Source of the DNA: Bacilli bacterium
GTDB lineage: Bacteria > Bacillota_I > Bacilli_A > RFN20 > CAG-826
DNA length: 64,000 nt
Assembly: GCA_041673725.1 (NCBI GenBank)
Contig: JBAYXD010000001.1
Location: 23,760-87,759 of the forward strand
Direction of reading: 5' to 3'
Below, one piece after another: positions 50,877 to 62,068 of the stretch (positions within the stretch are counted from its first letter, which is position 1; each line of letters opens with the position of its first letter). A program made the translations under genes and the position numbers. The notes under the pieces are model-generated. The model saw nothing but the letters and a program-made list of their open reading frames with translations. It searched no databases and was not told the DNA's origin.

Positions 50877-50939
50877 CCCTAAATAATATCACAACTACTA
50901 TTATCTTTTAAAATAAATACTAGAAAATTACTAATAAAA

Positions 50940-50963
50940 AACATCAACCGAAGTTGATGTTAT
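50940..50963 (-). terminator. terminator hairpin after the small ORF
   Basis: minus-strand CATCAAC-ttcg-GTTGATG followed by TTTTT. Confidence 0.45.
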
Positions 50964-50969
50964 CATCAA

Positions 50970-51125
50970 TTAGTCTTGTTGATCTTTGTTATCGTTGTAA
51001 ATCTTGAACAAACAAGCATTTGGGGTAAATTGTCCAATATATGGTGTTCCAACATTGCCGATACATACTAGTTCGTAATCTTGATTTTCATCATAACTTT
51101 CATTTTCATAATCTTCTACAAACAT
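50970..51125 (-). CDS. small hypothetical protein (51 aa)
   Basis: RBS AAGGAGG 9 nt before ATG (MFVEDYENESYDEN...); acidic N-terminus; followed by a terminator. Confidence 0.35.
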   Translation of the reverse strand: MFVEDYENESYDENQDYELVCIGNVGTPYIGQFTPNACLFKIYNDNKDQQD

Positions 51126-51206
51126 ATTCAATTTCCTCCTTGCATTTTCAATTTTAGGAGAAAAAAAATTAAAAACAAGAATATTGTCGACCACATCGAA
51201 TGAATA

Positions 51207-51220
51207 TAAGCGCTTTCAGT
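51207..51220. promoter_or_regulatory. possible cre-like element (one mismatch to consensus) upstream of the small ORF
   Basis: TATAAGCGCTTTCA, reverse complement TGAAAGCGCTTATA versus consensus TGWAANCGNTNWCA. Confidence 0.25.
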
Positions 51221-51305
51221 AACCGCTTACAATTAAAAATGTTAGGAATACAGCCTATTTAAATTACAAGAATTCAGAAATTATGAAAGTGTTTTCAAAA
51301 AAAAC

Positions 51306-52022
51306 TTAATTTCCACTATAAACATATTGAGCATTAAAAGTAGTTGAAATCTTGTATCCAGAATTTGTAAGCGATTTGACTTCCATATTTGAAGAAACAA
51401 GCATTCCGTATGTATCTACAACAAAAATATTATTAATAATATAATCTTTTTTAGTTAAATCATTTTCAAGATTATATGTTAATAACGTTTTATCATTATT
51501 TAATGAAAAATTATTATAATAATCTGTAGCATTAATGATTAGATTATCTCCGTAATACTTACCATACATATGGTATCCACTTTGATTTTCGGTATAAAAA
51601 TAGCTTCTAATATTCTCTTTAATACTATCTTTCATTGTTAGCGGATCTTTTATTTCACCATTTTCTTTAATGATTGATGACAAATTATTATTTTCATCAC
51701 AAGAATCTTCTTCAAAATAAGTTTTTAAGTTGTTTTCAATATAATTCCCAACATATGTCGCATTTTTTTTATAATAAAGAGAATTGGAATTCCATGAAAA
51801 GGAAATTTCATATTCGCTTGAACCTAATATTTCTTCACCATCATAATCCACTTGTTTAAAATAACAAGACCCGGATTGAGTCGATTTTTCAGTTTTCTCA
51901 TACTCAAAAGAATCGATAAAATCTTTTATATCGCCTTCAGGCATTGAAGAACTTCCACAACTAACCAAAAGCAAAGATGACAACACTATTAACAATTTTT
52001 TATATAATTTCTTTTTAATCAT
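51306..52022 (-). CDS. hypothetical lipoprotein
   Basis: start refined to MIKKKLYKKLLIVLSSLLLVSCGSS (lipobox LVSC); Asn/Tyr-rich mature part, no family recognised. Confidence 0.5.
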   Translation of the reverse strand: MIKKKLYKKLLIVLSSLLLVSCGSSSMPEGDIKDFIDSFEYEKTEKSTQSGSCYFKQVDYDGEEILGSSEYEISFSWNSNSLYYKKNATYVGNYIENNLKTYFEEDSCDENNNLSSIIKENGEIKDPLTMKDSIKENIRSYFYTENQSGYHMYGKYYGDNLIINATDYYNNFSLNNDKTLLTYNLENDLTKKDYIINNIFVVDTYGMLVSSNMEVKSLTNSGYKISTTFNAQYVYSGN

Positions 52023-52023
52023 C

Positions 52024-52590
52024 TTACAAATTATACTCATAAACACAGTTGCCGTAAATACATTCATTATCTGCAGAATTATAGGCATTTATAGTTGAAA
52101 AATTCTCGCTAAGTAAATAACCATTTTTGTCATAATCAATAGAAGCATTCCACTTTGCGCTCATTTCCATCCCAAAACGATTAATAATCAATCTTTTGTT
52201 GCAAGAAAACACTTTAAAAGATAAACCATCATCTTGCTGATAAATATAAACATTATAAATAGACGTTTGAGATAGAAATCTATTCTTTATTGCAAGGTAA
52301 GAATCTTCCCAATTAGCTGAATTAATATGAGTTGGCAGCGATAAATAAAATGATTTGTTAGTGTCGACATAATCAATATTCTCTTCACTTACATCATAAG
52401 ATCCAATATTTTTTGCAAGAAAATTCATTTTTCCTTTGCGACTATAGGTTTTATAATCTAAATCAACAAAATTATTAACGATAGTTAAAGCTTCATTTTC
52501 ATTTATATCATCACCATTTGAATTAGCAGAACATGAAAATATCAAAGGTATAGTCATCAATAACAAAATATTTTTAAAATACTTTTTCAT
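52024..52590 (-). CDS. hypothetical lipoprotein
   Basis: signal peptide plus lipobox IFSC (MKKYFKNILLLMTIPLIFSCSANS), 188 aa. Confidence 0.55.
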   Translation of the reverse strand: MKKYFKNILLLMTIPLIFSCSANSNGDDINENEALTIVNNFVDLDYKTYSRKGKMNFLAKNIGSYDVSEENIDYVDTNKSFYLSLPTHINSANWEDSYLAIKNRFLSQTSIYNVYIYQQDDGLSFKVFSCNKRLIINRFGMEMSAKWNASIDYDKNGYLLSENFSTINAYNSADNECIYGNCVYEYNL

Positions 52591-52598
52591 AAATCCTC

Positions 52599-55136
52599 CT
52601 AATAAATTCTTAATCCAATTCCCTTTTCAGTAATTTGAATTCTAGTAATATCAAACTTTAAATTAATCTTCTCCCCTACTTTAAGTTTTTCTTTTAAAAT
52701 ACAATAAATTTGTTTTGGTTCACCATCAAAATTAATCTTACAATTATAGTAAATCTTTCCGTTAACAATTTGGCTGCCTTCAACAACTGCATCGAAGCCA
52801 TCTTTATCAATTCTATAAGCATTATGAGGTATTTCTAATAAATAAGTTTTACTAAATACTTTTGTTCCAAGACTTTGAACCATTTTATTTGAAATAATTT
52901 CAGTTGATTCAACGTATTTCTTACCGAATTTAAAGAAGAATAATTGATCTTGTTTTAAAATATCATTATTTTCTTCAACACTTAATTCTTTATCTTTATG
53001 TTTGAACTCGCTGCTCAAATATGATGCATAATTTTCATCAACTTTAAACTTCTTCTTCATCTTAACTAATTCAGCTTTAAGTGCTGCGTTTTCACGCTTA
53101 TAATAACCATTAGTACTATTTACATTAGTTTCATAAACAATTGATTCTTCGTTTATACGTCGTGTAAGTTCGTTATTTCTTTCTTTTGGTAAATTGTCTT
53201 TATAATTTTTATGTTCTTCTCTTCTCTTGCGTCCTTCCTCTTTATCTGTATTAATCTCAACAAATTTCTTATAAGACGCTTTCTCTTCTTCTTTTAAATT
53301 ATCATAAAGAACATTTACTTCATTCTTAATAGAAACAAGTTTCTCTTTGTGAGCTTTATTGAAAGTATTAATTTTAGTTTTTTGTTCAACTTTATTGCAG
53401 GTTATTGCTTTTTCAACTTTGTCTTTTTCTAACAAATAGGCTTTATCATCTTTTTCTTTTAGTTCAACATTATTTATTTTTTGTGCATCTAAAATCTTCT
53501 TTTCATATTCTTTTTTGAGAACAGATTTTTTAGATTCATATTCTTTTTTTGTATCTAAAATTCTGTTTTCAATAATTTCTTTATAACCACTTAAATCATT
53601 CTTAGCAGTAAAATAATTGATAAATGAACCGTTAATACTATCGAATTCTGGCATAGGTTGAATCAAAGATTCTTTCTCATTTTTAACAAGAATTTGTGTG
53701 TAGTCAAAATCAAATTTAACTGTTGAGCCAATCTTATAGTCTTTGTTGGCTATGCTAAAAAGTAGTCTATTCCCAACTTTAATATAAACGAGTTTTTTAT
53801 TTCCAATTGTTTCAAAATTGATAATTTTACCATCAAAAGGACCATCATCAAGAATAATTGAGTTTGAATTAATAAACAACTCACCTTCACCATCTTTAGC
53901 TTTAATTGATAATGGAAGTTTAATTTTTAAGTCGCCAATAACGATGCTTTGTTTTTCAACTTTGCAATTCAAGACATTAATTTCAGGAAGTCTTGGCATC
54001 ACAGACTCTTCTGTTGATTTATCAAAAATATGACATTTTTTCAGATTTAAAACAGCTTTTACAATTTGTCCTGGTTTGAAATCATAAGTTGATGTCCCCT
54101 TAACAATTACTCTTGTAGATGTTTCGCCAAAACCATCACCATTAAGATCTGTATCAGCATAGATTAGAGTTTCGTTGCCAAGTTCTTCAAAATGAGATAT
54201 TTTTACATCAATTGCAGACTTATCATTTTTAGTTTTTTCTGGGTCAACTGTAATATCCTCACATCTTAAACCAACATAAACAAGGTGCTTATTATCTAAA
54301 TAAATAGGTTGAAGTTTTAATAAATCATCATGAGGAACTTCAATTTTTGCATTACTATATTTAAAATTAAAACTAATTAAATCTTTTGCACTTGAAAGTG
54401 TTGCTTCAAAAAAGTTCATTTGTGGAGTTCCAATAAACCCTGCAACGAATTTGTTATTAGGATAATCATAAAGATTTTTTGGAGTATCTATTTGTTGAAT
54501 ACGTCCACTCTTCATAACAACAACACGAGTTCCAAGGGTCATTGCTTCAACTTGATCGTGAGTAACATAAACAAATGTAGTTTTTAATTCTTCATGCAAC
54601 TTTGCAATTTCACTTCTCATTTGAGCACGTAATTTTGCATCCAAATTGCTCAATGGTTCATCTAAAAGCATAACTTTTGGATTTCTTAAAATAGCACGTC
54701 CTAAGGCGACTCTTTGACGTTGACCACCACTCATTGCTTTTGGTTTTCTATCCAAATAATCGTTTAAACCTAAAATATTTGATGCCCATAAAACTTTCTG
54801 ATGAATAATATCGTTTGGTACATGACGTAATTGAAGGCCAAAAGCCATATTTTCATAAACTGTCATATGTGGGTACAATGCATAGTTTTGGAAAACCATT
54901 GCGATATCTCTATCTTTTGGTTCAACATCATTTACAATTTTTCCATCAATATACAATTCACCAGCACTTATATCTTCAAGTCCAGCAATCATTCTTAAAG
55001 TTGTGGACTTTCCACATCCAGATGGACCCACAAGAACAATGAACTCCTTATCTTCAATGTTCATTGTAAAATCGCTTACTGCTTTTGTCCCATTTGGATA
55101 AACCTTATAAATGTGTTCTAATCTTAAATCTGCCAT
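52599..55136 (-). CDS. MalK/MsmK-type sugar ABC transporter ATPase with about 470 aa C-terminal extension
   Basis: Walker A GPSGCGKST, Q-loop, signature MSGGQRQRVALGRA, Walker B VMLLDEPLSNLD, H-loop; then a TOBE-like region, a second beta-rich region, about 160 aa Lys/Glu-rich probable coiled coil, and a terminal beta-rich domain. Confidence 0.8.
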   Translation of the reverse strand: MADLRLEHIYKVYPNGTKAVSDFTMNIEDKEFIVLVGPSGCGKSTTLRMIAGLEDISAGELYIDGKIVNDVEPKDRDIAMVFQNYALYPHMTVYENMAFGLQLRHVPNDIIHQKVLWASNILGLNDYLDRKPKAMSGGQRQRVALGRAILRNPKVMLLDEPLSNLDAKLRAQMRSEIAKLHEELKTTFVYVTHDQVEAMTLGTRVVVMKSGRIQQIDTPKNLYDYPNNKFVAGFIGTPQMNFFEATLSSAKDLISFNFKYSNAKIEVPHDDLLKLQPIYLDNKHLVYVGLRCEDITVDPEKTKNDKSAIDVKISHFEELGNETLIYADTDLNGDGFGETSTRVIVKGTSTYDFKPGQIVKAVLNLKKCHIFDKSTEESVMPRLPEINVLNCKVEKQSIVIGDLKIKLPLSIKAKDGEGELFINSNSIILDDGPFDGKIINFETIGNKKLVYIKVGNRLLFSIANKDYKIGSTVKFDFDYTQILVKNEKESLIQPMPEFDSINGSFINYFTAKNDLSGYKEIIENRILDTKKEYESKKSVLKKEYEKKILDAQKINNVELKEKDDKAYLLEKDKVEKAITCNKVEQKTKINTFNKAHKEKLVSIKNEVNVLYDNLKEEEKASYKKFVEINTDKEEGRKRREEHKNYKDNLPKERNNELTRRINEESIVYETNVNSTNGYYKRENAALKAELVKMKKKFKVDENYASYLSSEFKHKDKELSVEENNDILKQDQLFFFKFGKKYVESTEIISNKMVQSLGTKVFSKTYLLEIPHNAYRIDKDGFDAVVEGSQIVNGKIYYNCKINFDGEPKQIYCILKEKLKVGEKINLKFDITRIQITEKGIGLRIY

Positions 55137-55148
55137 ACTTTTGTCCTC

Positions 55149-56747
55149 CTATTTAATTAAAGCTATTCCATGTGGCGGAATATTAATATTGTTATTCTTA
55201 AGTCTTCCAACATAACTATTACTTTTATCAATAACTAATTCATTAATCACTTCACTAAAACCATAATCCTCTATATTTACTTCTAAATTCTCTTTTTCAT
55301 TATAATTGATTATAAATCCGATTGTTGAATCATCATAACTTTTCTTAAAAACAAGTTTTTTCAGGTCTGAATCAGCATCCACTAGTTCTGGTATTCCCCT
55401 ACTAATTGCCGGATATTTATTTCTTAAATAATTTGCTCTTTTATAATAATTTAAAATGCTATCCTCATTATTGATTTGCTCATCAACTGTCCCAAATACA
55501 TACTTAGCAACAGTAGTTCCAACTGGATTTTTACATAAAGTATTCGAATTCCAATTCATGGCAATTCTAACATTTTGATCACAAGCATTATCACCTTTAT
55601 TTGTTCCTACCATTCCAATCTCATCACCATAATATGTAAAAGCTGAACCATTGAGCATTGATAATAAACCGAATAAAAACTTTGTATTATCATCCGATGA
55701 TTCTAAAGCAATTCTAGGTGTATCATGATTGCATAAAAATGGAGCAGGAATATACTTTTCAGTAATTAAATAGTTGCTTTCTAGTCCTCTATAATATGTT
55801 TTTAACCATCCACCTTCCATATTTAAACTATTAACAATAAACCCAGTCGAACCATACGATTCAAAGTTAAAGAAACTATCCAATTCACTTTTATAGTAAT
55901 CACTAATAACTGAATAACTATCCCAACATTCGCCAATAACATAAATGTTCTTGTTCAGCGTTCTGCAATACTTAATTAAATCATTTAAGAAAGAAATATT
56001 CTTGCTATCGCTGTTTATAAAATAATACTTAACTGCATCTAATCTAAAACCATCAATTCCCATATCAACATAATATTTAATTATTTTTTTAAATTCGTTT
56101 TGAACATATATTGAATTACAATTAAATTCTGGCATATCGCTAGAAAAGTTACCTTCGTAATAGAAATTTTCATTAGGAACTTGATATGTTTTGATGTTTT
56201 TTTGTGGTTCTAAATAAAAATTATAAAAATCTTTAAATTCATCCTCTTCAGTAGTCAAAGTGATACCTTTAAGATATTTAGAATAAGCTTTTGTTGCTTT
56301 TATAAAATATTCGTTTGTAATTGAACTATGATTTAAAACCAAATCTAGAATTAATCTAATGTTTCGTTTATGGCATTCCTTAATTAAATTCTTTAAATCA
56401 TCAATCGTTCCATAACTAGAATCAATTTCATAATAATTAGCAACATCATATTTATGATATGATGGCGAAGAATTGATAGGCATTAACCAAATGCCTGTAT
56501 ATCCAAGTGATTGAATATAGTCTAATTTAGAAGCTACACCATTAAGGTCACCAATTTTATCATCATTAGAATCACAATAAGATCCAACATAAATTTCATA
56601 ATAATTACGATAATTATCATCAATAATTGTTGGTTGATCTTCATTATATTTAATCTTGTAGCCTAAAATAGAATCGTAACTTTCGCCACAACCAATTAGA
56701 GTACTAGATAATAACATTGTTGAAATTAAACCGAAGATTTTGTTCAT
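55149..56747 (-). CDS. GH13-family alpha-amylase/alpha-glucosidase lipoprotein
   Basis: lipobox LIGC; GH13 regions LVLNHSS, GIDGFRLDAVKYY, GECWD, FLCNHDTPR. Confidence 0.8.
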   Translation of the reverse strand: MNKIFGLISTMLLSSTLIGCGESYDSILGYKIKYNEDQPTIIDDNYRNYYEIYVGSYCDSNDDKIGDLNGVASKLDYIQSLGYTGIWLMPINSSPSYHKYDVANYYEIDSSYGTIDDLKNLIKECHKRNIRLILDLVLNHSSITNEYFIKATKAYSKYLKGITLTTEEDEFKDFYNFYLEPQKNIKTYQVPNENFYYEGNFSSDMPEFNCNSIYVQNEFKKIIKYYVDMGIDGFRLDAVKYYFINSDSKNISFLNDLIKYCRTLNKNIYVIGECWDSYSVISDYYKSELDSFFNFESYGSTGFIVNSLNMEGGWLKTYYRGLESNYLITEKYIPAPFLCNHDTPRIALESSDDNTKFLFGLLSMLNGSAFTYYGDEIGMVGTNKGDNACDQNVRIAMNWNSNTLCKNPVGTTVAKYVFGTVDEQINNEDSILNYYKRANYLRNKYPAISRGIPELVDADSDLKKLVFKKSYDDSTIGFIINYNEKENLEVNIEDYGFSEVINELVIDKSNSYVGRLKNNNINIPPHGIALIK

Positions 56748-56749
56748 AA

Positions 56750-57616
56750 TTATCCTTTTACAGCACCACCAGTAACACCTTCAACATAATATCTTTGCAA
56801 CCAGAAGAATAAAGCCATGATTGGAATCGAGACGAAGACACCACCAGCACAAAATTGTGGAAAATAAACAACACCATTTTCTTTAGTCAACATTTGTTGT
56901 AAGCCAACAGCAACATTGAATAATTCAGCGTGTCCTTGTGCAAGATAGCTAGCAAGCATATAATCACCCCAAGGTGCAGTAAATGCCATTAATATTGTAT
57001 AAACAATAATTGGTTTAGAAAGTGGCATAATTACTCGCCAAAAAATTGTATTCTTATTTGCGCCATCAATCATTGCGGCTTCATCAAGTGATCTAGAAAT
57101 CGTATCAAAAAAACCTTTAGCAATATAATAACCCATTGCACTACCGCCAATATAAACAAGAACTAATCCAAATATATTCCCACTCAATCCAAGAAATTGA
57201 AGAATATAATATGTAACAATCATTCCTAAGAAACCAGGGAACATTGCAATAACTAAAATAATTTTCATGTATCCTTTTCTTGATTTAAATCTTAAACGAG
57301 AGAAAGAATAAGCAGTCATTAAAGTTAATACAGTTTGTAAAACTGAAGTAATTAAAGCAATTACTAAAGTATTTAAAAACCATCTCCAAAATGGGTAAAC
57401 AGTATCCGTAAACAATTTAATATAATTATCAAAAGTAAATTGCTTTGGAATTAAATAAGCCGTAACATACTCTGTGGCAAATGATTGTAAAATCAAATAC
57501 ACGAAAGGTAATACCCAAACAATAGAAAGAACAATTAATACAATATAAATAAGCGTTTTAGAAGAAGCTTCTCTAATCTTTCTTCCATGAAAACTAAATG
57601 CATTTTTATCTAACAT
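56750..57616 (-). CDS. malG: maltodextrin ABC transporter permease (MalG-like)
   Basis: 6 TM, EAA loop DEAAMIDGANKNTIFWRVIMPLSKP. Confidence 0.85.
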   Translation of the reverse strand: MLDKNAFSFHGRKIREASSKTLIYIVLIVLSIVWVLPFVYLILQSFATEYVTAYLIPKQFTFDNYIKLFTDTVYPFWRWFLNTLVIALITSVLQTVLTLMTAYSFSRLRFKSRKGYMKIILVIAMFPGFLGMIVTYYILQFLGLSGNIFGLVLVYIGGSAMGYYIAKGFFDTISRSLDEAAMIDGANKNTIFWRVIMPLSKPIIVYTILMAFTAPWGDYMLASYLAQGHAELFNVAVGLQQMLTKENGVVYFPQFCAGGVFVSIPIMALFFWLQRYYVEGVTGGAVKG

Positions 57617-59154
57617 TATTGGAAATCCTCCTCGTTTTTAACAGAATTGCTTCGACCATAAAATACAAGAGAAATAAGAGAGACAATTACAAATACACAA
57701 ATACCAATTACCGAAGCAACACCATAATCTTTAAATACTTCACCCATAGCTATTTTATATAACCAAGTAATAAGCAAATCAGTTTGCCCAGCTCCAAAAA
57801 CATTAGTAGAAATCATAATTCCATTAACACTTGTAAAGACTGGTCCACCACCAGACAATAAATAAATAACATTGAAATTATTAATATTACCGACAAATTG
57901 AGAAATTAAATATGGACCAGTAACAAATAACATATAAGGTAAAGTAATCTTAACATACATTTTAAATGGACTAGCGCCATCAATTTTTGCAGATTCATAT
58001 AAATCAGCAGGAATATTCATTAAAAGACCTGTACAAATAAGCATTGTATAAGGAATACCTATCCACATGTTAACAACAATAATTGTAACTTTAGCAATCA
58101 TTCCATCTTCAAGGAATTTAATGTTTTCAGTAATCCAACCCAATTGTTGCAACAAAGCATTCATTGCTCCTAAATTTGTATTAAGCACTTTAGAAAGTAA
58201 TAGCAAAGAAACAAATTGTGGGACAGCAATTGTAGTAATTAAAACGGTACGCCATAATTTTTTTAACTTTATGCCTTTTCTATTAATTAACAACGCAATA
58301 ATCATTCCAAGAAAATAATTAGTAAATGTAGCAAAGAAAGCCCAAACCAATGTCCATAACAATATTTGTAAGAAAACTCCAACAAATTGATTACCGCCTT
58401 CACCACTTAAACCCAATAATCTTGAAAAGTTAGACATTCCAACCCAATCGAACAATTCTTTTGGATTCATATAATTAGAATTATAATCAGTAAAGCCAAC
58501 TAAAACCATGAAGATAAGAGGAATTATAGTAAACAACACTAAACCTGAAGTAGGCAAAGCAAGTAAGACTTTATGATAGTTTTTCCCTGTTAAATCATTA
58601 ATCGTTGAAGAATCAGTAATAACATGTCCAATAAGTCTATACTCTTGTAAACTTAAAGCTTCTTTTATTTGGGTATACCATAAATAAATAAAAACCAATA
58701 TTAATAGAATTGTGATAACTGAAAATAATAAGATATTGAAGCTATCATCCATATAAACATACCCAGTAAAAGGTTCAACATCAATATCATATTGAACCGA
58801 AGCAATATTGCCAAATGTAGGTAATTTTATTAGATTTGGAATACCAGTAATGATCAAATAAGTAATAAAACAAACCTCAAAAATGAGATTAAAAAAACCT
58901 CTAATATATTGATGATTTGTGATTTGACCAAAACCCATAACAACATAACTAATTCTAGTTTTCCAATCGCCATTTACAAAACTATTAACAAGTGTAACAA
59001 AAGGATTAGATATTTTTTTAAATAGATTTCGTGTTTTTGATGGTATTTTCCTAAAGAAATGGTAAATACCTAACGGAATCGCCATAAAAAAAGATCCAAT
59101 TTTATAAAGTATTTTCTTAGATGCAGATAAAGACATATATTCAATTGTTGTCAT
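57616..59154 (-). CDS. malF: maltodextrin ABC transporter permease (MalF-like, extended N-terminus)
   Basis: 512 aa, 8 TM, EAA loop YESAKIDGASPFKMYVKITLPYM. Confidence 0.85.
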   Translation of the reverse strand: MTTIEYMSLSASKKILYKIGSFFMAIPLGIYHFFRKIPSKTRNLFKKISNPFVTLVNSFVNGDWKTRISYVVMGFGQITNHQYIRGFFNLIFEVCFITYLIITGIPNLIKLPTFGNIASVQYDIDVEPFTGYVYMDDSFNILLFSVITILLILVFIYLWYTQIKEALSLQEYRLIGHVITDSSTINDLTGKNYHKVLLALPTSGLVLFTIIPLIFMVLVGFTDYNSNYMNPKELFDWVGMSNFSRLLGLSGEGGNQFVGVFLQILLWTLVWAFFATFTNYFLGMIIALLINRKGIKLKKLWRTVLITTIAVPQFVSLLLLSKVLNTNLGAMNALLQQLGWITENIKFLEDGMIAKVTIIVVNMWIGIPYTMLICTGLLMNIPADLYESAKIDGASPFKMYVKITLPYMLFVTGPYLISQFVGNINNFNVIYLLSGGGPVFTSVNGIMISTNVFGAGQTDLLITWLYKIAMGEVFKDYGVASVIGICVFVIVSLISLVFYGRSNSVKNEEDFQ

Positions 59155-59225
59155 ACTTTAACTCCTTTTTAAAACCACAAATTTGCATAGGACCAAAAGG
59201 CCCTATGCAAAAATTAGAATTTCAA

Positions 59226-60494
59226 CTATTTGCTTGCTTTAATATTATCATTAAGAGTCTTACAAGCATCACTTAAATTATCTAAAGTAACAGTTCCATC
59301 AATCATTCCATTGATTAATGTAGCTGGAGCAGTCCAGAAATTACCTGGAACTGAAGTTTGTGCGTGAGCAAAACTACCTTGTTCACTTAAAACCTTAACG
59401 TTAGCATTACTTGTAACAGCTTCAGAAGCGGTAGCAGTCTTATTGCATGGTGCAGTTTCATAAGCATAGAAACGCTTTAATTGGCACTTTTCGCCGGATA
59501 AGAACATAGCTAACTTATGAGCAGCTGTTAATCTATCATTATCATCACTTGAGACTTGTGGATTAACACCAAATAATTTACCACCAAGGAATGCTCCTAA
59601 GTGTTTTGTTTCACCATCAACAGTGACATTTGGCATAACAGCGCAACCATAATTATCTTTTAAAGCAGTCTTATAATTACTAATATCCCAAGTTCCTGCC
59701 ATACAAGCAATTAAATTATTGGATTCTGATGGAGCTTCCATATCTTTAACCCATGCTTTATCAGTAACAATACTATAAATAGCTTTAGCAGCTTTGATAC
59801 CTTTTTCTGAATCAAAATCAGCATCAACCTTTGAAACTTGACCTTGATCATCAAAAGTCATTGAATAATCAGCACCAAAAGTAAACATTGCGGCAGCACC
59901 CCAGAAACCTTCTGGTAAATTGTAACCAACTTTTTTGCCTAATGTATTAGCTTTGGCTAATAATTTTTCAATAGAAGAAACATCATCTTCAGTTAAAACA
60001 GACTTATCATATTGAAGGTAATAAGTATTATCACCAGTATATGGATAAGCAATAAGTTTTTCATTAAAAGTTGCAGCAGATACACCAAATGAGTTATTTG
60101 CTGTAGTAACAAAGGACTTATAATCACCCTTAAGTTCTGCTAAAGCACCTTTTGAATATAAACCTGAAACTTTATCAGAAGCGAATTCATAAACATCTGG
60201 TCCAGTCTTCCAATCAGTAACTTCTGAATCTACCTTATCTGGTCCATGTTCAACATAAGTAATATTATAAGTATTAATATCACCATTAGCTTTCATTTCA
60301 GTTTTGAAATCATCAAATAATGATTCATTGAAATACTTGTTAGTACCAGTTCCTGAATAAACAAGGTTAATTGTTTTTGCTACTGGTTCATCTGGTTCAT
60401 CAGGTGTATCAGGAGTTGTTTCTCCACATCCAGCCAAAGCAAGACTACATAAACTTAATAACGCGAGACTCACAAATCTTAAATTTTTTTTCAT
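59226..60494 (-). CDS. malE: maltose/maltodextrin-binding lipoprotein (SBP family 1)
   Basis: lipobox LAGC, Pro/Asp/Glu-rich linker, about 420 aa solute-binding fold. Confidence 0.8.
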   Translation of the reverse strand: MKKNLRFVSLALLSLCSLALAGCGETTPDTPDEPDEPVAKTINLVYSGTGTNKYFNESLFDDFKTEMKANGDINTYNITYVEHGPDKVDSEVTDWKTGPDVYEFASDKVSGLYSKGALAELKGDYKSFVTTANNSFGVSAATFNEKLIAYPYTGDNTYYLQYDKSVLTEDDVSSIEKLLAKANTLGKKVGYNLPEGFWGAAAMFTFGADYSMTFDDQGQVSKVDADFDSEKGIKAAKAIYSIVTDKAWVKDMEAPSESNNLIACMAGTWDISNYKTALKDNYGCAVMPNVTVDGETKHLGAFLGGKLFGVNPQVSSDDNDRLTAAHKLAMFLSGEKCQLKRFYAYETAPCNKTATASEAVTSNANVKVLSEQGSFAHAQTSVPGNFWTAPATLINGMIDGTVTLDNLSDACKTLNDNIKASK

Positions 60495-60562
60495 AATATT
60501 TTAAAAATACCTCCTTATTTAAGATGTATATTCATACGCACCTACGGCGCATTAATACCGAA

Positions 60563-62068
60563 CTAATCACGTCCAGACATTTTGGTTTTGATATTTAACC
60601 AATCAGTGATTTTTTTATTAAAAAATCCCTGCTTACATCTCCAACTCCAATTGTTAGTACTTAAGGTTGAAGGAAAATTCATGCGTCCCTCTTTTCCAAT
60701 TCCTAGTAAGTCTTGCATTGGACAAATTGCACATCGCGTCTTACTCATCATATTTAATTCACAAATCTTTAAGGTTAATTCTTTATTTGTAGCATCTTTG
60801 CTTGGAAGATTAATCTTGAAGAAATCACATTCATTATCTAAATCTTTTAGGAATACTATTCGGTCTTTACTATTTAACTCATCGATATATTGAGTTGTTG
60901 TTTGACTATCATGTGTTCCAGTATAGGAGAAGAAATTCTCAGTATAATTCGATGGTTTCCAGATATTTTTTGGATCTCCATCAAATCCTTGAGTAACAAT
61001 CTTCATTCCAGGATACTTAACAACATCCATCATCTTATAGAAGTCATCATCCATCATTCCTAAATCTTCAGCAACAATTGGTAGATTAAGTTTATCCATG
61101 AACATCGAAGCACCTGGACCTTTAATCCACTTTCCATTTCTTGCAGTCTTATCGCCAAATGGAATTGAATAATATCCACTAAATCCTCTAAAGTGATCAA
61201 TTCGAATTAAGTCATAAAGTTTTAAATTATAATTAATTCGTTCATTCCACCACTTATAGTCATCTTCTTTCATATAATCATAATTATATAAAGGATTGCC
61301 CCATAATTGACCATCAACACTGAAACAATCTGGTGGACATCCAGCAACACGAGTTGGAAGATGATTCTTATCTAATTGAAAGAGTTCAGAATCTTTCCAA
61401 ACTTCGACACTGTCGTAAGCTAAGTATATTGGCATATCACCCATAATTTTTACATCATGTTTATGCGCATAGTCTTTTAAATTATTGTATTGTTTTAAGA
61501 AAATATATTGCGTCCATTCATAGAATTCGACTAAATCACCATATTTTTCTTTAATCTCTTTATCAATCTTAGATGAATAATTACGATATTCATTTTCCCA
61601 AGTATTCCAAGGTTTATAAGTATGTAATTCTTTTAGAGTCATAAAGATTGCGAAGTCTTCATACTCATGTTTATTTAAGAATTCATTGTAGGAATCATCG
61701 TTACGATTGAATCTATTAAAGGCTTTCTTAAGTACGTTATATCGGTTATGGAAGAGAATTTCATAATTAACACGTCCCTCATCTCCGCCCCACTCAATCG
61801 AATCACATTCATCTTTTGTTAATAATCCATCTTCAATCAAGAATTCTAAATCTATAAAATAAGGATTAAGAGCTTTACTTGATGGAGATTGATATGGAGA
61901 ATCTCCATAACTTGTTAGAGTTAATGGGAGTATTTGCCAAACATGTAAATGACTTTGGTTTAAAAAATCGATGAAGTTATAAGCTTCGCGACCAAGCGTT
62001 CCAATACCATATTTGGATGGCAAAGAAGAAATGTGTAACAAAATACCAGCTTCTCTTTTTTCTCTCAT
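60563..62068 (-). CDS. malQ: 4-alpha-glucanotransferase (amylomaltase, GH77)
   Basis: N-terminal GILLHISSLPSKYGIGTLG; catalytic regions IRIDHFRGF and IVAEDLGMM; 501 aa. Confidence 0.9.
   Translation of the reverse strand: MREKREAGILLHISSLPSKYGIGTLGREAYNFIDFLNQSHLHVWQILPLTLTSYGDSPYQSPSSKALNPYFIDLEFLIEDGLLTKDECDSIEWGGDEGRVNYEILFHNRYNVLKKAFNRFNRNDDSYNEFLNKHEYEDFAIFMTLKELHTYKPWNTWENEYRNYSSKIDKEIKEKYGDLVEFYEWTQYIFLKQYNNLKDYAHKHDVKIMGDMPIYLAYDSVEVWKDSELFQLDKNHLPTRVAGCPPDCFSVDGQLWGNPLYNYDYMKEDDYKWWNERINYNLKLYDLIRIDHFRGFSGYYSIPFGDKTARNGKWIKGPGASMFMDKLNLPIVAEDLGMMDDDFYKMMDVVKYPGMKIVTQGFDGDPKNIWKPSNYTENFFSYTGTHDSQTTTQYIDELNSKDRIVFLKDLDNECDFFKINLPSKDATNKELTLKICELNMMSKTRCAICPMQDLLGIGKEGRMNFPSTLSTNNWSWRCKQGFFNKKITDWLNIKTKMSGRD

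Follow-up and report, generated by a model that had tools for sequence, protein, structure and literature searches.

An 845-residue ATPase encoded in a maltodextrin operon combines a complete importer core with an extension of a kind that is absent from Pfam models and for which a literature search found no description. The core is of the MsmX/MalK class and is already known. What is new is a regulatory domain present in triplicate, with a helical arm about 225 residues long set between the second and third copies. All source names that we encountered for such proteins were either 'UgpC' or 'multiple sugar transport system ATP-binding protein'.

The gene occupies positions 52599..55136 on the minus strand, as do all the features described below, of the window (the whole 64-kb stretch of DNA analysed). 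In the ORF list it runs for 845 uninterrupted codons from an ATG to a stop codon at 52599-52601. It lies 12 nt from the amylase gene that precedes it and has its own ribosome-binding site (AGGAGG, 8 nt upstream of the start); its stop codon overlaps the ribosome-binding site of the gene that follows.

Could so long a protein be an artefact? The earlier note had named a frameshift that fused malK with a downstream gene as the finding that would undo its reading, and a mis-join in the assembly would have the same effect. Such an error of sequencing or assembly was suspected at first from the unusual length of the protein, and the chance of it is now negligible: a second, independent ENA assembly contains the identical 845-aa protein, end-to-end alignments over 100% of the query exist for more than 110 clusters of proteins 841-861 aa long, 49 species share the architecture, and an exhaustive search with the extension alone places it at ~380-850 in proteins like this one. 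Alignments to relatives of 820-861 aa (n = 117) likewise span 100% of the length. The long form is present in at least 49 GTDB species, among Ca. Onthovivens, Anaeroplasmataceae and Acholeplasmatales-type gut MAGs; one of the MAGs that encode it (L051) is assigned to Anaeroplasma bactoclasticum.

The length had also been called unusual for a MalK protein. Members of the MsmX/MalK class are expected to have ~340-410 aa and one regulatory domain; at 845 aa, against 353-406 aa for solved relatives, this protein falls outside that range. The description holds for that comparison, but rarity does not follow from it: the long form is the rule in its clade, and a related form of ~630 aa is common.

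Residues 1-380 are a complete ABC importer ATPase of the MsmX/MalK class (CUT1), in agreement with the earlier reading of residues 1 to about 385 as a whole MalK/MsmK. The nucleotide-binding domain (residues 1-237, positions 54426..55136) matches Pfam ABC_tran with an E-value of 3e-32. It contains the Walker A motif (GPSGCGKST, 37-45), Q83, the signature motif (MSGGQ, 135-139), the Walker B motif (MLLDEP, 156-161) and H193, and the ABC motif residues are invariant among 118 relatives. The domain that follows, here called RD1 (residues 238-380, positions 53997..54425), is a canonical MalK-type regulatory domain (OB_MalK/TOBE), scoring 32.5 bits against Pfam OB_MalK, where the cutoff is 27. In the PDB, residues 1-380 align end to end with residues 1-369 of 7x0q (E 1e-128) and with 6yir (E 5e-120). 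Foldseek searches with a model of the full-length protein matched chains of the MalK family over ~380 columns with TM-scores (target) of 0.74-0.77; the matches, all MalK-like, were confined to the first ~380 residues and left the extension with none. The protein passes the cutoff of the NCBIfam UgpC subfamily model NF008653 (450.7 bits versus 432) and misses that of the E. coli-type MalK equivalog NF008233 (380.2 versus 568 bits), and for this reason we assign it to the UgpC subfamily and not to the MalK equivalog. The name 'UgpC' does not indicate the substrate.

Beyond the core, a second beta-rich module and a terminal beta-domain had been proposed. Both exist, and each is best read as a diverged copy of the beta-domain that MalK uses for regulation. 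The first, RD2 (residues 381-507, positions 53616..53996), begins with a near-invariant P-R-x-P linker (381-384); the second, RD3 (residues 731-845, positions 52602..52946), has an inserted helix at 746-756 and a conserved motif, ISNKMIQSLG.KVF. AlphaFold2 places the two beta-domains at 386-507 and 733-837. Pfam searches gave zero families above threshold for residues 381-845, taken as three segments, and zero for the extension in 43 family members. Matches below threshold to TOBE_2, CysA_C or OB_MalK appeared in one to four of these 43, with CysA_C_terminal and TOBE_2 found in four members each. The extension is present uniformly in relatives, as the earlier note had allowed it might be, but it does not match any known domain in Pfam.

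The assignment comes from profile and structure comparisons. With hhalign, RD1 matches RD2 with 85-90% probability over 102 columns, starting from an equivalent P-x-x-N motif, and RD2 matches RD3 with 95-96.5% probability (E 9e-10). The direct match of RD1 to RD3 is weak (24-80%), so that the homology of RD3 rests mainly on its likeness to RD2. Searched against the PDB, the family profile found residues 237-341 of the MalK structure 2it1 (E 0.008). When the extension was modelled alone, all but one of the best 34 Foldseek matches were chains of the MalK/MsmX/GlcV/SugC type, the exception being human NBD2 (3gd7). These matches cover 115-139 columns with an rmsd of 2.7-4.8 Å and E-values down to 6e-6, without distinguishing RD2 from RD3. 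The di-mop domain of ModE (1h9r/1o7l) was matched as well. Within the protein, conservation is lowest in RD2, where the majority fraction is 0.41-0.53.

Between RD2 and RD3 lies the helical arm (residues 508-730, positions 52947..53615). The Lys/Glu-rich helical region noticed earlier is there, and its length must be revised from roughly 160 aa to about 213-223 aa. Lys and Glu make up 36% of the arm, as against 14% of the N-terminal 380 aa, and Lys by itself makes up 20%. AlphaFold2 predicts helices at 518-552, 556-628, 632-701 and 703-730, with pLDDT mostly 85-97; a loop at 629-631 forms the tip, and the breaks at 553-555 and 702 give the appearance of an elbow. We infer a single antiparallel arm because these two breaks are symmetric about the tip. 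It is predicted to be a hairpin ~150 Å long that bends at roughly a third of its height. The antiparallel pairing of the helices, the bend and the placement of the arm relative to the ATPase were read from secondary-structure strings, confidence values and loose Foldseek matches. For the extension as a whole (381-845) the mean pLDDT is 91; the pTM of the full-length and extension models is 0.55-0.58, which makes the arrangement of the domains uncertain.

The arm is not a canonical coiled coil. Its hydrophobic residues recur with a period of 3.65-3.7 in four of four helices, with little power at the 3.5 expected of heptads; at a period of ~3.67 we reject the heptad model. It is better described as a hairpin of amphipathic helices or as a hendecad-like coil. 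A profile search of the PDB with the arm returned coiled-coil, apolipoprotein (A-I) and KMP-11 matches, all non-significant (E 0.04-0.6 for those of the apolipoprotein type), and the hairpin proteins found by Foldseek (EmrA, the Smc arm and EnvC) are loose matches with rmsd above 20 Å.

Across 118 relatives the arm measures 223-229 aa, while identity in the extension is merely ~30%. Conservation within the arm is highest in a block near the tip (residues 611-681, positions 53094..53306) with the consensus Y..I...E...F..FK.INKDKDAYRKR..E...FK.N...EK.NEL.K.INLEA..YES..NALKG.YKR. The helix at 632-683 has nine conserved polar residues that face away from the hydrophobic seam, on a helical wheel drawn with one constant period for all 52 residues. 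Fixed length, amphipathic periodicity and this island of conservation indicate that the arm is under constraint.

One relative carries an addition at the elbow. In P0016, a protein of 1088 aa encoded by a continuous ORF in L049, two transmembrane DUF6693/DUF898 repeats interrupt the helix at the 553-556 break. The elbow of that protein must sit at the membrane, given where the repeats are inserted. P0016 is the sole member of its cluster, the only one of this kind, and may be an aberration.

The ~630-aa forms mentioned above, labelled 'UgpC', are common in gut MAGs labelled as Clostridia and Acholeplasmatales (for example, P0141 and P0298). They agree with the long form in the order of nucleotide-binding domain, RD1, RD2 and RD3, in the P-R-x-P linker and in the type of operon (GH77-SBP-MalF-MalG-amylase-ATPase). 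They differ in having a loop of ~17 residues in place of the arm: residues 1-125 and 350-464 of the extension align to residues 381-505 and 523-633 of P0141. Since these relatives possess both beta-domains and only the short loop, the arm is the later addition. Judged from the alignments, it was inserted into the loop that links RD2 to RD3. A duplication of the regulatory domain would first have given RD2 and RD3, an older state that would survive in the ~630-aa proteins; then, in the lineage of the window, an amphipathic hairpin of ~225 residues would have taken the place of the short loop by which the final strand of RD2 is joined to the initial strand of RD3.

The genes upstream in the operon span 55149..62068. 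Identified from their ORFs and Pfam matches, they encode a GH77 4-alpha-glucanotransferase (60563-62068), a lipoprotein solute-binding protein or SBP (59226-60494), a MalF-like permease (57616-59154), a MalG-like permease (56750-57616) and a GH13 alpha-amylase lipoprotein (55149-56747). The order SBP-MalF-MalG-amylase-ATPase is conserved in the loci of 49 species where the contig is long enough; in some loci the GH77 gene comes immediately before this block, while in others it lies at a different place or outside the range covered. Genes for GH77, phosphorylase and GlgB flank the operon in the window and in relatives, and the neighbourhood outside the core operon varies among loci. A tblastn search of the 64-kb window found the nucleotide-binding domain of this gene and no second one, which bears out the earlier statement that it is the only ATPase gene of the maltodextrin locus.

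Two genes with lipobox signal peptides follow, one of 188 aa (52024-52590) and one of ~238 aa (51306-52022, with a probable start at 52022). Pfam and PDB searches with these two lipoproteins matched neither. The pair follows the 845-aa type of ATPase in every locus that has downstream sequence, and is absent downstream of the ~630-aa ATPase in the one operon examined. This correlation of lipoprotein pair and arm may be purely phylogenetic.

What does the extension do? The account that we favour, and hold to be moderately probable as a whole, begins with operon linkage: the gene probably encodes the ATP-hydrolysing subunit of the maltodextrin importer of its own operon, extended by duplication of the regulatory domain and by insertion of the arm. 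The cytoplasmic platform of MalK-type ATPases holds the dimer together and receives regulatory inputs, and the extension probably makes this platform larger, for regulation or for docking. Two copies of the ATPase would sit beneath MalFG, as in MalK2, with stacked RD1, RD2 and RD3 enlarging the platform and each subunit projecting one rigid arm of fixed length. The conserved polar stripe that faces outward near the tip would dock onto a defined partner, whether the second arm, some other portion of the transporter, a protein of the cytoplasm or the surface of the membrane, and this docking would gate or organize transport. There is precedent for regulatory domains as sites of control in the binding of EIIA-Glc to MalK and in the trans-inhibition of ModBC (PMC10710835). 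The earlier note had proposed regulation (for example by an analogue of inducer exclusion), oligomerization, or docking to a cytoskeletal or other transporter partner; each of these may apply, but nothing found here speaks for a link to the cytoskeleton.

A more specific version of the docking platform, to which we give rather little weight, makes the arm a length-calibrated ruler that couples the transporter to a defined structure at a distance of ~100-150 Å. That structure might be an adjacent transporter, the partner arm, the inner membrane surface or an enzyme of glycogen metabolism. It would amount to the independent invention, within a nutrient importer, of an ABC ATPase with an elbowed arm in the style of SMC and Rad50. 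If so, the ATP-driven movements of a MalK-like dimer would be transmitted to the partner or gated by it.

Trans-inhibition, the first of the rivals to the docking platform, strikes us as unlikely to a similar degree. On this view RD2 and RD3 would switch the ATPase off when they bind a small molecule in the cytoplasm, such as a sugar phosphate, the maltodextrin or maltose that has been imported, or some other metabolite, in the way that the C-terminal domains of ModC and MetN act; the arm would be only a strut or dimerization element. Trans-inhibition is established in ABC importers, as in the study of ModBC cited in a review (PMC10710835), and the TOBE/OB-type fold of RD2 and RD3 is that of ligand-binding regulatory domains; there are also the matches to ModE by Foldseek and the weak ones to CysA_C_terminal and TOBE_2 in Pfam. 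The pair RD2-RD3 also occurs without an arm in the 630-aa forms of the same operon, from which it follows that the beta-domains do something for which the arm is not needed. Against this, no ligand-site motif was identified in RD2 or RD3, RD2 is poorly conserved, and the strict length of the arm and its conserved, exposed tip are left unexplained.

Less probable still is an association with the membrane: the arm, amphipathic and rich in Lys, would lie along its cytoplasmic face or reach back to it, and would there sense the state of the lipid or cluster transporters. Its Lys content and 11/3-like period are typical of surface-seeking amphipathic helices, the weak matches to apolipoprotein A-I and KMP-11 and the transmembrane repeats at the elbow of P0016 point the same way, and there is a loose precedent in ProP, whose C-terminal domain either binds the membrane or forms an antiparallel coiled coil and can change from one to the other (PMC10710835). 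But AlphaFold2 predicts long regular helices with very high confidence, and their single narrow hydrophobic seam fits packing of helix against helix; the apolipoprotein-type matches lack significance, and P0016 stands as one possibly aberrant sequence. We think it quite improbable that the arm is a metabolic scaffold whose exposed, conserved tip recruits the GH77 amylomaltase, glucan phosphorylase and branching enzyme to channel maltodextrin: the genes for these enzymes flank the operon here and in relatives, but the neighbourhood past the core operon is the part that changes from locus to locus.

The architecture matters because MalK is the textbook model of how ABC importers are powered and regulated via a single C-terminal regulatory domain. 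In an abundant clade of uncultured gut Bacilli with reduced genomes, that domain has been triplicated and an arm of fixed length with a conserved tip has been added. This implies a layer in the control or organization of sugar uptake that is missing from model systems and unseen in current annotation, and if the arm has a partner, a new way to couple an importer to the rest of the cell. There are gains of a more practical kind: a definable new domain family (the arm together with RD2 and RD3), proteins of 370, 630 and 845 aa that form a natural deletion series, and correction of a 'UgpC' label that misleads about substrate.

The closest known systems are the MsmX, MsmK and MalK ATPases. MsmX of B. 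subtilis (6YIR) and Clo1313_2554 of C. thermocellum (7X0Q) are 53-54% identical to residues 1-380. With MsmX, MsmK and MalK the protein shares the nucleotide-binding domain, all ATPase motifs and one OB/TOBE domain, and its gene is encoded with those of an SBP and MalF/MalG-type permeases. Those proteins end after one regulatory domain, at 357-406 aa; the window ATPase continues for another 465 residues and, compared with MsmX, MsmK and E. coli MalK, has two more copies of the regulatory domain and an arm of ~225 aa. The B. subtilis msmX gene stands alone and its product serves several transporters, whereas the window ATPase is encoded within its operon. Mycoplasma MG187 and MPN134 are also long MalK-like proteins.

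Two other groups resemble parts of the extension. ModC (ModBC, 3D31), MetN, CysA and the di-mop domain of ModE share with it beta-domains of the TOBE/OB type that are part of an ABC ATPase or act together with one, and folds of the ModE and ModC types are among the Foldseek matches. ModC, MetN and CysA have one such module per chain (in ModE it is tandem) and known ligands; the window ATPase has three, with a helical insertion. In EmrA, HlyD, AcrA and EnvC, too, a beta-domain is interrupted by a long alpha-helical hairpin, and Foldseek matched EmrA (4TKO, E 4e-3 over 443 columns) and EnvC (8TZL). At an rmsd of 24-31 Å these periplasmic adaptors share the general shape only; they are extracytoplasmic and have different beta-folds, and we reject membership of that group.

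A further comparison is with SMC, Rad50 and MukB, in which an ABC ATPase also bears a long antiparallel helical arm. There, too, the length of the arm and its apex are conserved and an elbow is apparent; a fragment of the Smc arm (5XG2) is a loose Foldseek match to the extension. In SMC and Rad50 it is the nucleotide-binding domain that the arm interrupts, and at the far end of the arm is a hinge or a zinc hook. In the window ATPase, a transporter subunit, the nucleotide-binding domain is uninterrupted, the arm follows RD2 and lies between two C-terminal beta-domains, and the apex (INKDKDAYRKR) is without the Cys of a hook, so we reject membership of the SMC/Rad50 family. We regard the likeness as one of analogy, not homology.

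The ATPase gene (52599-55136, minus strand) is an uninterrupted frame of 845 codons, opening with an ATG 8 nt downstream of an AGGAGG. Just 12 nt separate it from the amylase stop codon and its own stop codon overlaps the ribosome-binding site of the following gene, spacing that marks it as a member of a tightly packed operon. We found no ABC nucleotide-binding domain elsewhere in the 64-kb window, in agreement with the earlier note, which called this the sole ATPase gene of the maltodextrin locus. The 845-aa protein is the ATPase of the operon. Genes for GlgB and glucan phosphorylase adjoin; the window (GC about 25-35%) looks chromosomal, with tRNA synthetases, Lon and MutS2. A strong terminator-like hairpin (59182-59211, minus strand; 13-bp stem, 6 GC pairs, followed by a T-rich tail) stands between the genes for the sugar-binding lipoprotein and the MalF-like permease, close behind the former, and might raise expression of the binding protein above that of the membrane and ATPase subunits. 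In the permease (57616-59154, minus strand; 512 aa), BPD_transp_1 covers residues 281-500 only; the long stretch ahead of it contains additional hydrophobic segments and is kept in related loci at 53-78% identity.

Over their whole length, residues 1-380 align with solved MsmX-type ATPases, including Clostridium thermocellum Clo1313_2554 (7x0q, residues 1-369; E 1e-128) and Bacillus subtilis MsmX (6yir; E 5e-120), and Pfam ABC_tran and OB_MalK both score above threshold; a complete MalK/MsmK had rightly been recognized at the N-terminus. The NCBIfam UgpC subfamily model is passed (450.7 bits, cutoff 432), a label that says nothing about substrate. The E. coli MalK equivalog model is not reached (380 bits, cutoff 568), and the protein is not a MalK equivalog. 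By every sequence and fold criterion tested, although not by size, this portion is an MsmX/MalK-class ATPase, and it holds all that a MalK/MsmX subunit needs.

What, then, is the extension, residues 381-845? No Pfam family matches it, even at E = 10, and full-text searching of the literature, with many subscription papers outside its reach, found no description. AlphaFold2, run on an alignment of 118 relatives from the full-length search, models it with pLDDT 80-92 in the complete protein and a mean of 91.2 alone. The two beta modules proposed earlier reappear as strands at 386-507 (in RD2, residues 381-507) and 733-837 (in RD3, residues 731-845), the latter enclosing one helix (746-756). In profile-profile comparison the canonical regulatory domain, RD1 (238-381), matches residues 382-500 with 85-90% probability over 102 columns, starting at an equivalent P-x-x-N motif (PQMN and PEIN, respectively). 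RD2 matches RD3 with 95-96.5% probability (E 9e-10); the direct match of RD1 to RD3 is weak (24-80%), so that RD3 is assigned mainly through RD2. Against PDB sequences, a profile of 43 extensions finds the Pyrococcus horikoshii MalK regulatory domain best (2it1, 237-341; E 0.008). With the extension-only model, 33 of the first 34 Foldseek matches are MalK/MsmX/GlcV/SugC-type chains (115-139 columns, rmsd 2.7-4.8 Å); the exception is human NBD2 (3gd7), and the ModE di-mop domain comes after them. Judged by profiles and predicted fold, both beta-domains appear to be copies of the MalK regulatory domain.

Between them lies a helical arm (508-730), with predicted helices at 518-552, 556-628, 632-701 and 703-730. 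The earlier note had read here a probable Lys/Glu-rich coiled coil of about 160 residues. The composition stands (36% Lys plus Glu; Pro occurs once and Gly twice in the 213 residues), but the length does not: the helical part has 213 residues, and the arm 223-229 in 118 of 118 relatives, in an extension only about 30% identical overall. Nor does a heptad coil: all four helices are amphipathic with a period of 3.65-3.7 and little power at 3.5, a hendecad-like pattern that, on sequence, does not describe a canonical heptad coiled coil. Such an 11/3-like period is odd for a coiled-coil lookalike, and lipid-surface amphipathic helices have it too. Counted from the 629-631 loop, one helix break (553-555) is 76 residues away and the other (702) 72, a near-symmetry from which we infer one antiparallel arm, elbowed and about 150 Å long. 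Foldseek matches to EmrA, an Smc arm fragment and EnvC are loose, with only general shape in common; a periplasmic adaptor identity was rejected. The best-conserved stretch (611-681) surrounds the tip. Helix 632-683 carries nine conserved polar residues (D633, E641, E652, N655, K659, N662, N673, G677 and R681) opposite its hydrophobic seam, while in helix 596-628 conserved residues fall nearly all in the seam, K626 alone lying just outside. An external binding surface would produce such a pattern. The extension consists of regulatory-domain duplicates and an inserted arm of constrained length.

Among the 118 relatives the nucleotide-binding domain is nearly invariant and the extension variable yet gap-poor, with R382, P384, N507, N629, R681, F733, I748, K751, Q754, V760, F761 and E837 invariant. 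With the extension as query, exhaustive HMMER searching through 1.84 billion representatives returned only 61 proteins, the full-length ones matching at positions ~380-850; hundreds of homologues exist. With one genome scanned per GTDB species, the extension occurs in 49 species, all represented by MAGs, single-sample bins or otherwise uncultured genomes. Candidatus Onthovivens is closest (44% identity in the extension); other labels include Anaeroplasmataceae, Acholeplasmatales, Ca. Pelethenecus, Ca. Alectryobacillus, Clostridium sp. CAG:288, CAG:568 and a MAG assigned to Anaeroplasma bactoclasticum. As to whether relatives carry it uniformly as an annotated domain, it is present throughout them, without a Pfam model.

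Shorter forms suggest how it arose. Exhaustive searching also returned proteins of 619-640 aa matching the first beta-domain only, at their positions 381-500, in the order nucleotide-binding domain-RD1-RD2-short loop-RD3. In BLASTP, extension residues 1-125 and 350-464 align with residues 381-505 and 523-633 of one of these, P0141, so that ~225 residues in the 845-aa form stand for ~17. Gut metagenomes are rich in the 630-aa form (>100 clusters, one in 439 blocks of the collection), from Clostridia or Acholeplasmatales MAGs where named, and the one operon examined has the same layout (LacI-GH77-SBP-MalF-MalG-amylase-ATPase-phosphorylase, SBP being the sugar-binding lipoprotein). One regulatory domain likely became three, and three then gained an arm. 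The RD2-RD3 loop may have been elaborated more than once, as variant inserts indicate: P0137 (871 aa) has an Ala/Glu/Lys-rich helical insert of different composition lacking the INKDKDAYRKR tip motif, and P0156 (946 aa), whose Walker A is degenerate (GERKAGKST), has a helical region that is longer still. In P0016, a cluster of one member (1088 aa, continuous ORF; locus L049, 5628-8894, plus strand; Erysipelotrichales-labelled MAG HAN093), ~240 extra residues forming two transmembrane DUF6693/DUF898 repeats interrupt the arm, without a change of frame, where its first helix gives way to the second (corresponding to 553-556). Read from sequence, a cytoplasmic ATPase subunit would here have a membrane-embedded module built into its arm.

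The 49 species loci share the gene order SBP-MalF-MalG-amylase-ATPase on every contig that extends far enough. Each related locus whose sequence continues downstream has two lipoprotein genes directly after the arm-type ATPase, that of P0016 included; tblastn finds the pair in most related loci, and the six most divergent have lipobox ORFs of 212-266 aa there. The one 630-aa operon examined lacks such a pair after its ATPase. Here the genes lie at 52024-52590 (188 aa) and 51306-52022 (~238 aa), both on the minus strand, and neither product has a Pfam or PDB match. The 260-aa ORF listed for the second overlaps its upstream gene; translation probably begins with the ATG at 52022 (MIKKKLYKK...SCGSS). 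At 50877-51305, between the second lipoprotein gene and a PHP-domain gene, is only a 74-aa ORF (50970-51194). In Ca. Onthovivens L001, the closest genome, this place is taken by a pullulanase-type gene of 879 aa (PUD/CBM48/GH13), which looks to have been lost or gained within the locus.

In MalK2 and related ATPases the regulatory domains both keep the dimer together and take in inhibitory signals. EIIA-Glc acts on MalK in this way, and trans-inhibition of ModBC and MetNI is another such input (review PMC10710835 and its references). By analogy with MalK2, the RD1-RD2-RD3 stack would enlarge the regulatory platform, each subunit would project one arm, and the conserved tip stripe would dock on a defined partner, so gating or organising transport. 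We favour this overall reading, if not strongly; our confidence is much higher for the anatomy and much lower for docking. It is unlikely, though worth keeping in mind, that the extension is a ligand-sensing trans-inhibition module and the arm a strut. Less probable again is an arm acting as a membrane-surface element, suggested though it is by its Lys-rich 11/3 periodicity, the variant with a transmembrane insert and the precedent of the ProP C-terminal domain. That the extension is an enzyme scaffold seems improbable. An artefact, such as the frameshift fusion raised earlier, can be dismissed: a contig from an independent ENA assembly encodes an identical protein, 119 of the best 120 full-length matches are 820-861 aa (nearly all with 100% query coverage and ~50% identity), and 49 species have the extension.

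For ABC-transporter specialists the ATPase is a clear curiosity, and its size forms offer a ready natural deletion series. An SMC/Rad50-type identity was rejected, for here the arm lies outside the nucleotide-binding domain and has no hook. Compared with the MsmX/MalK class, the protein is alike over residues 1-380 and differs in total size.
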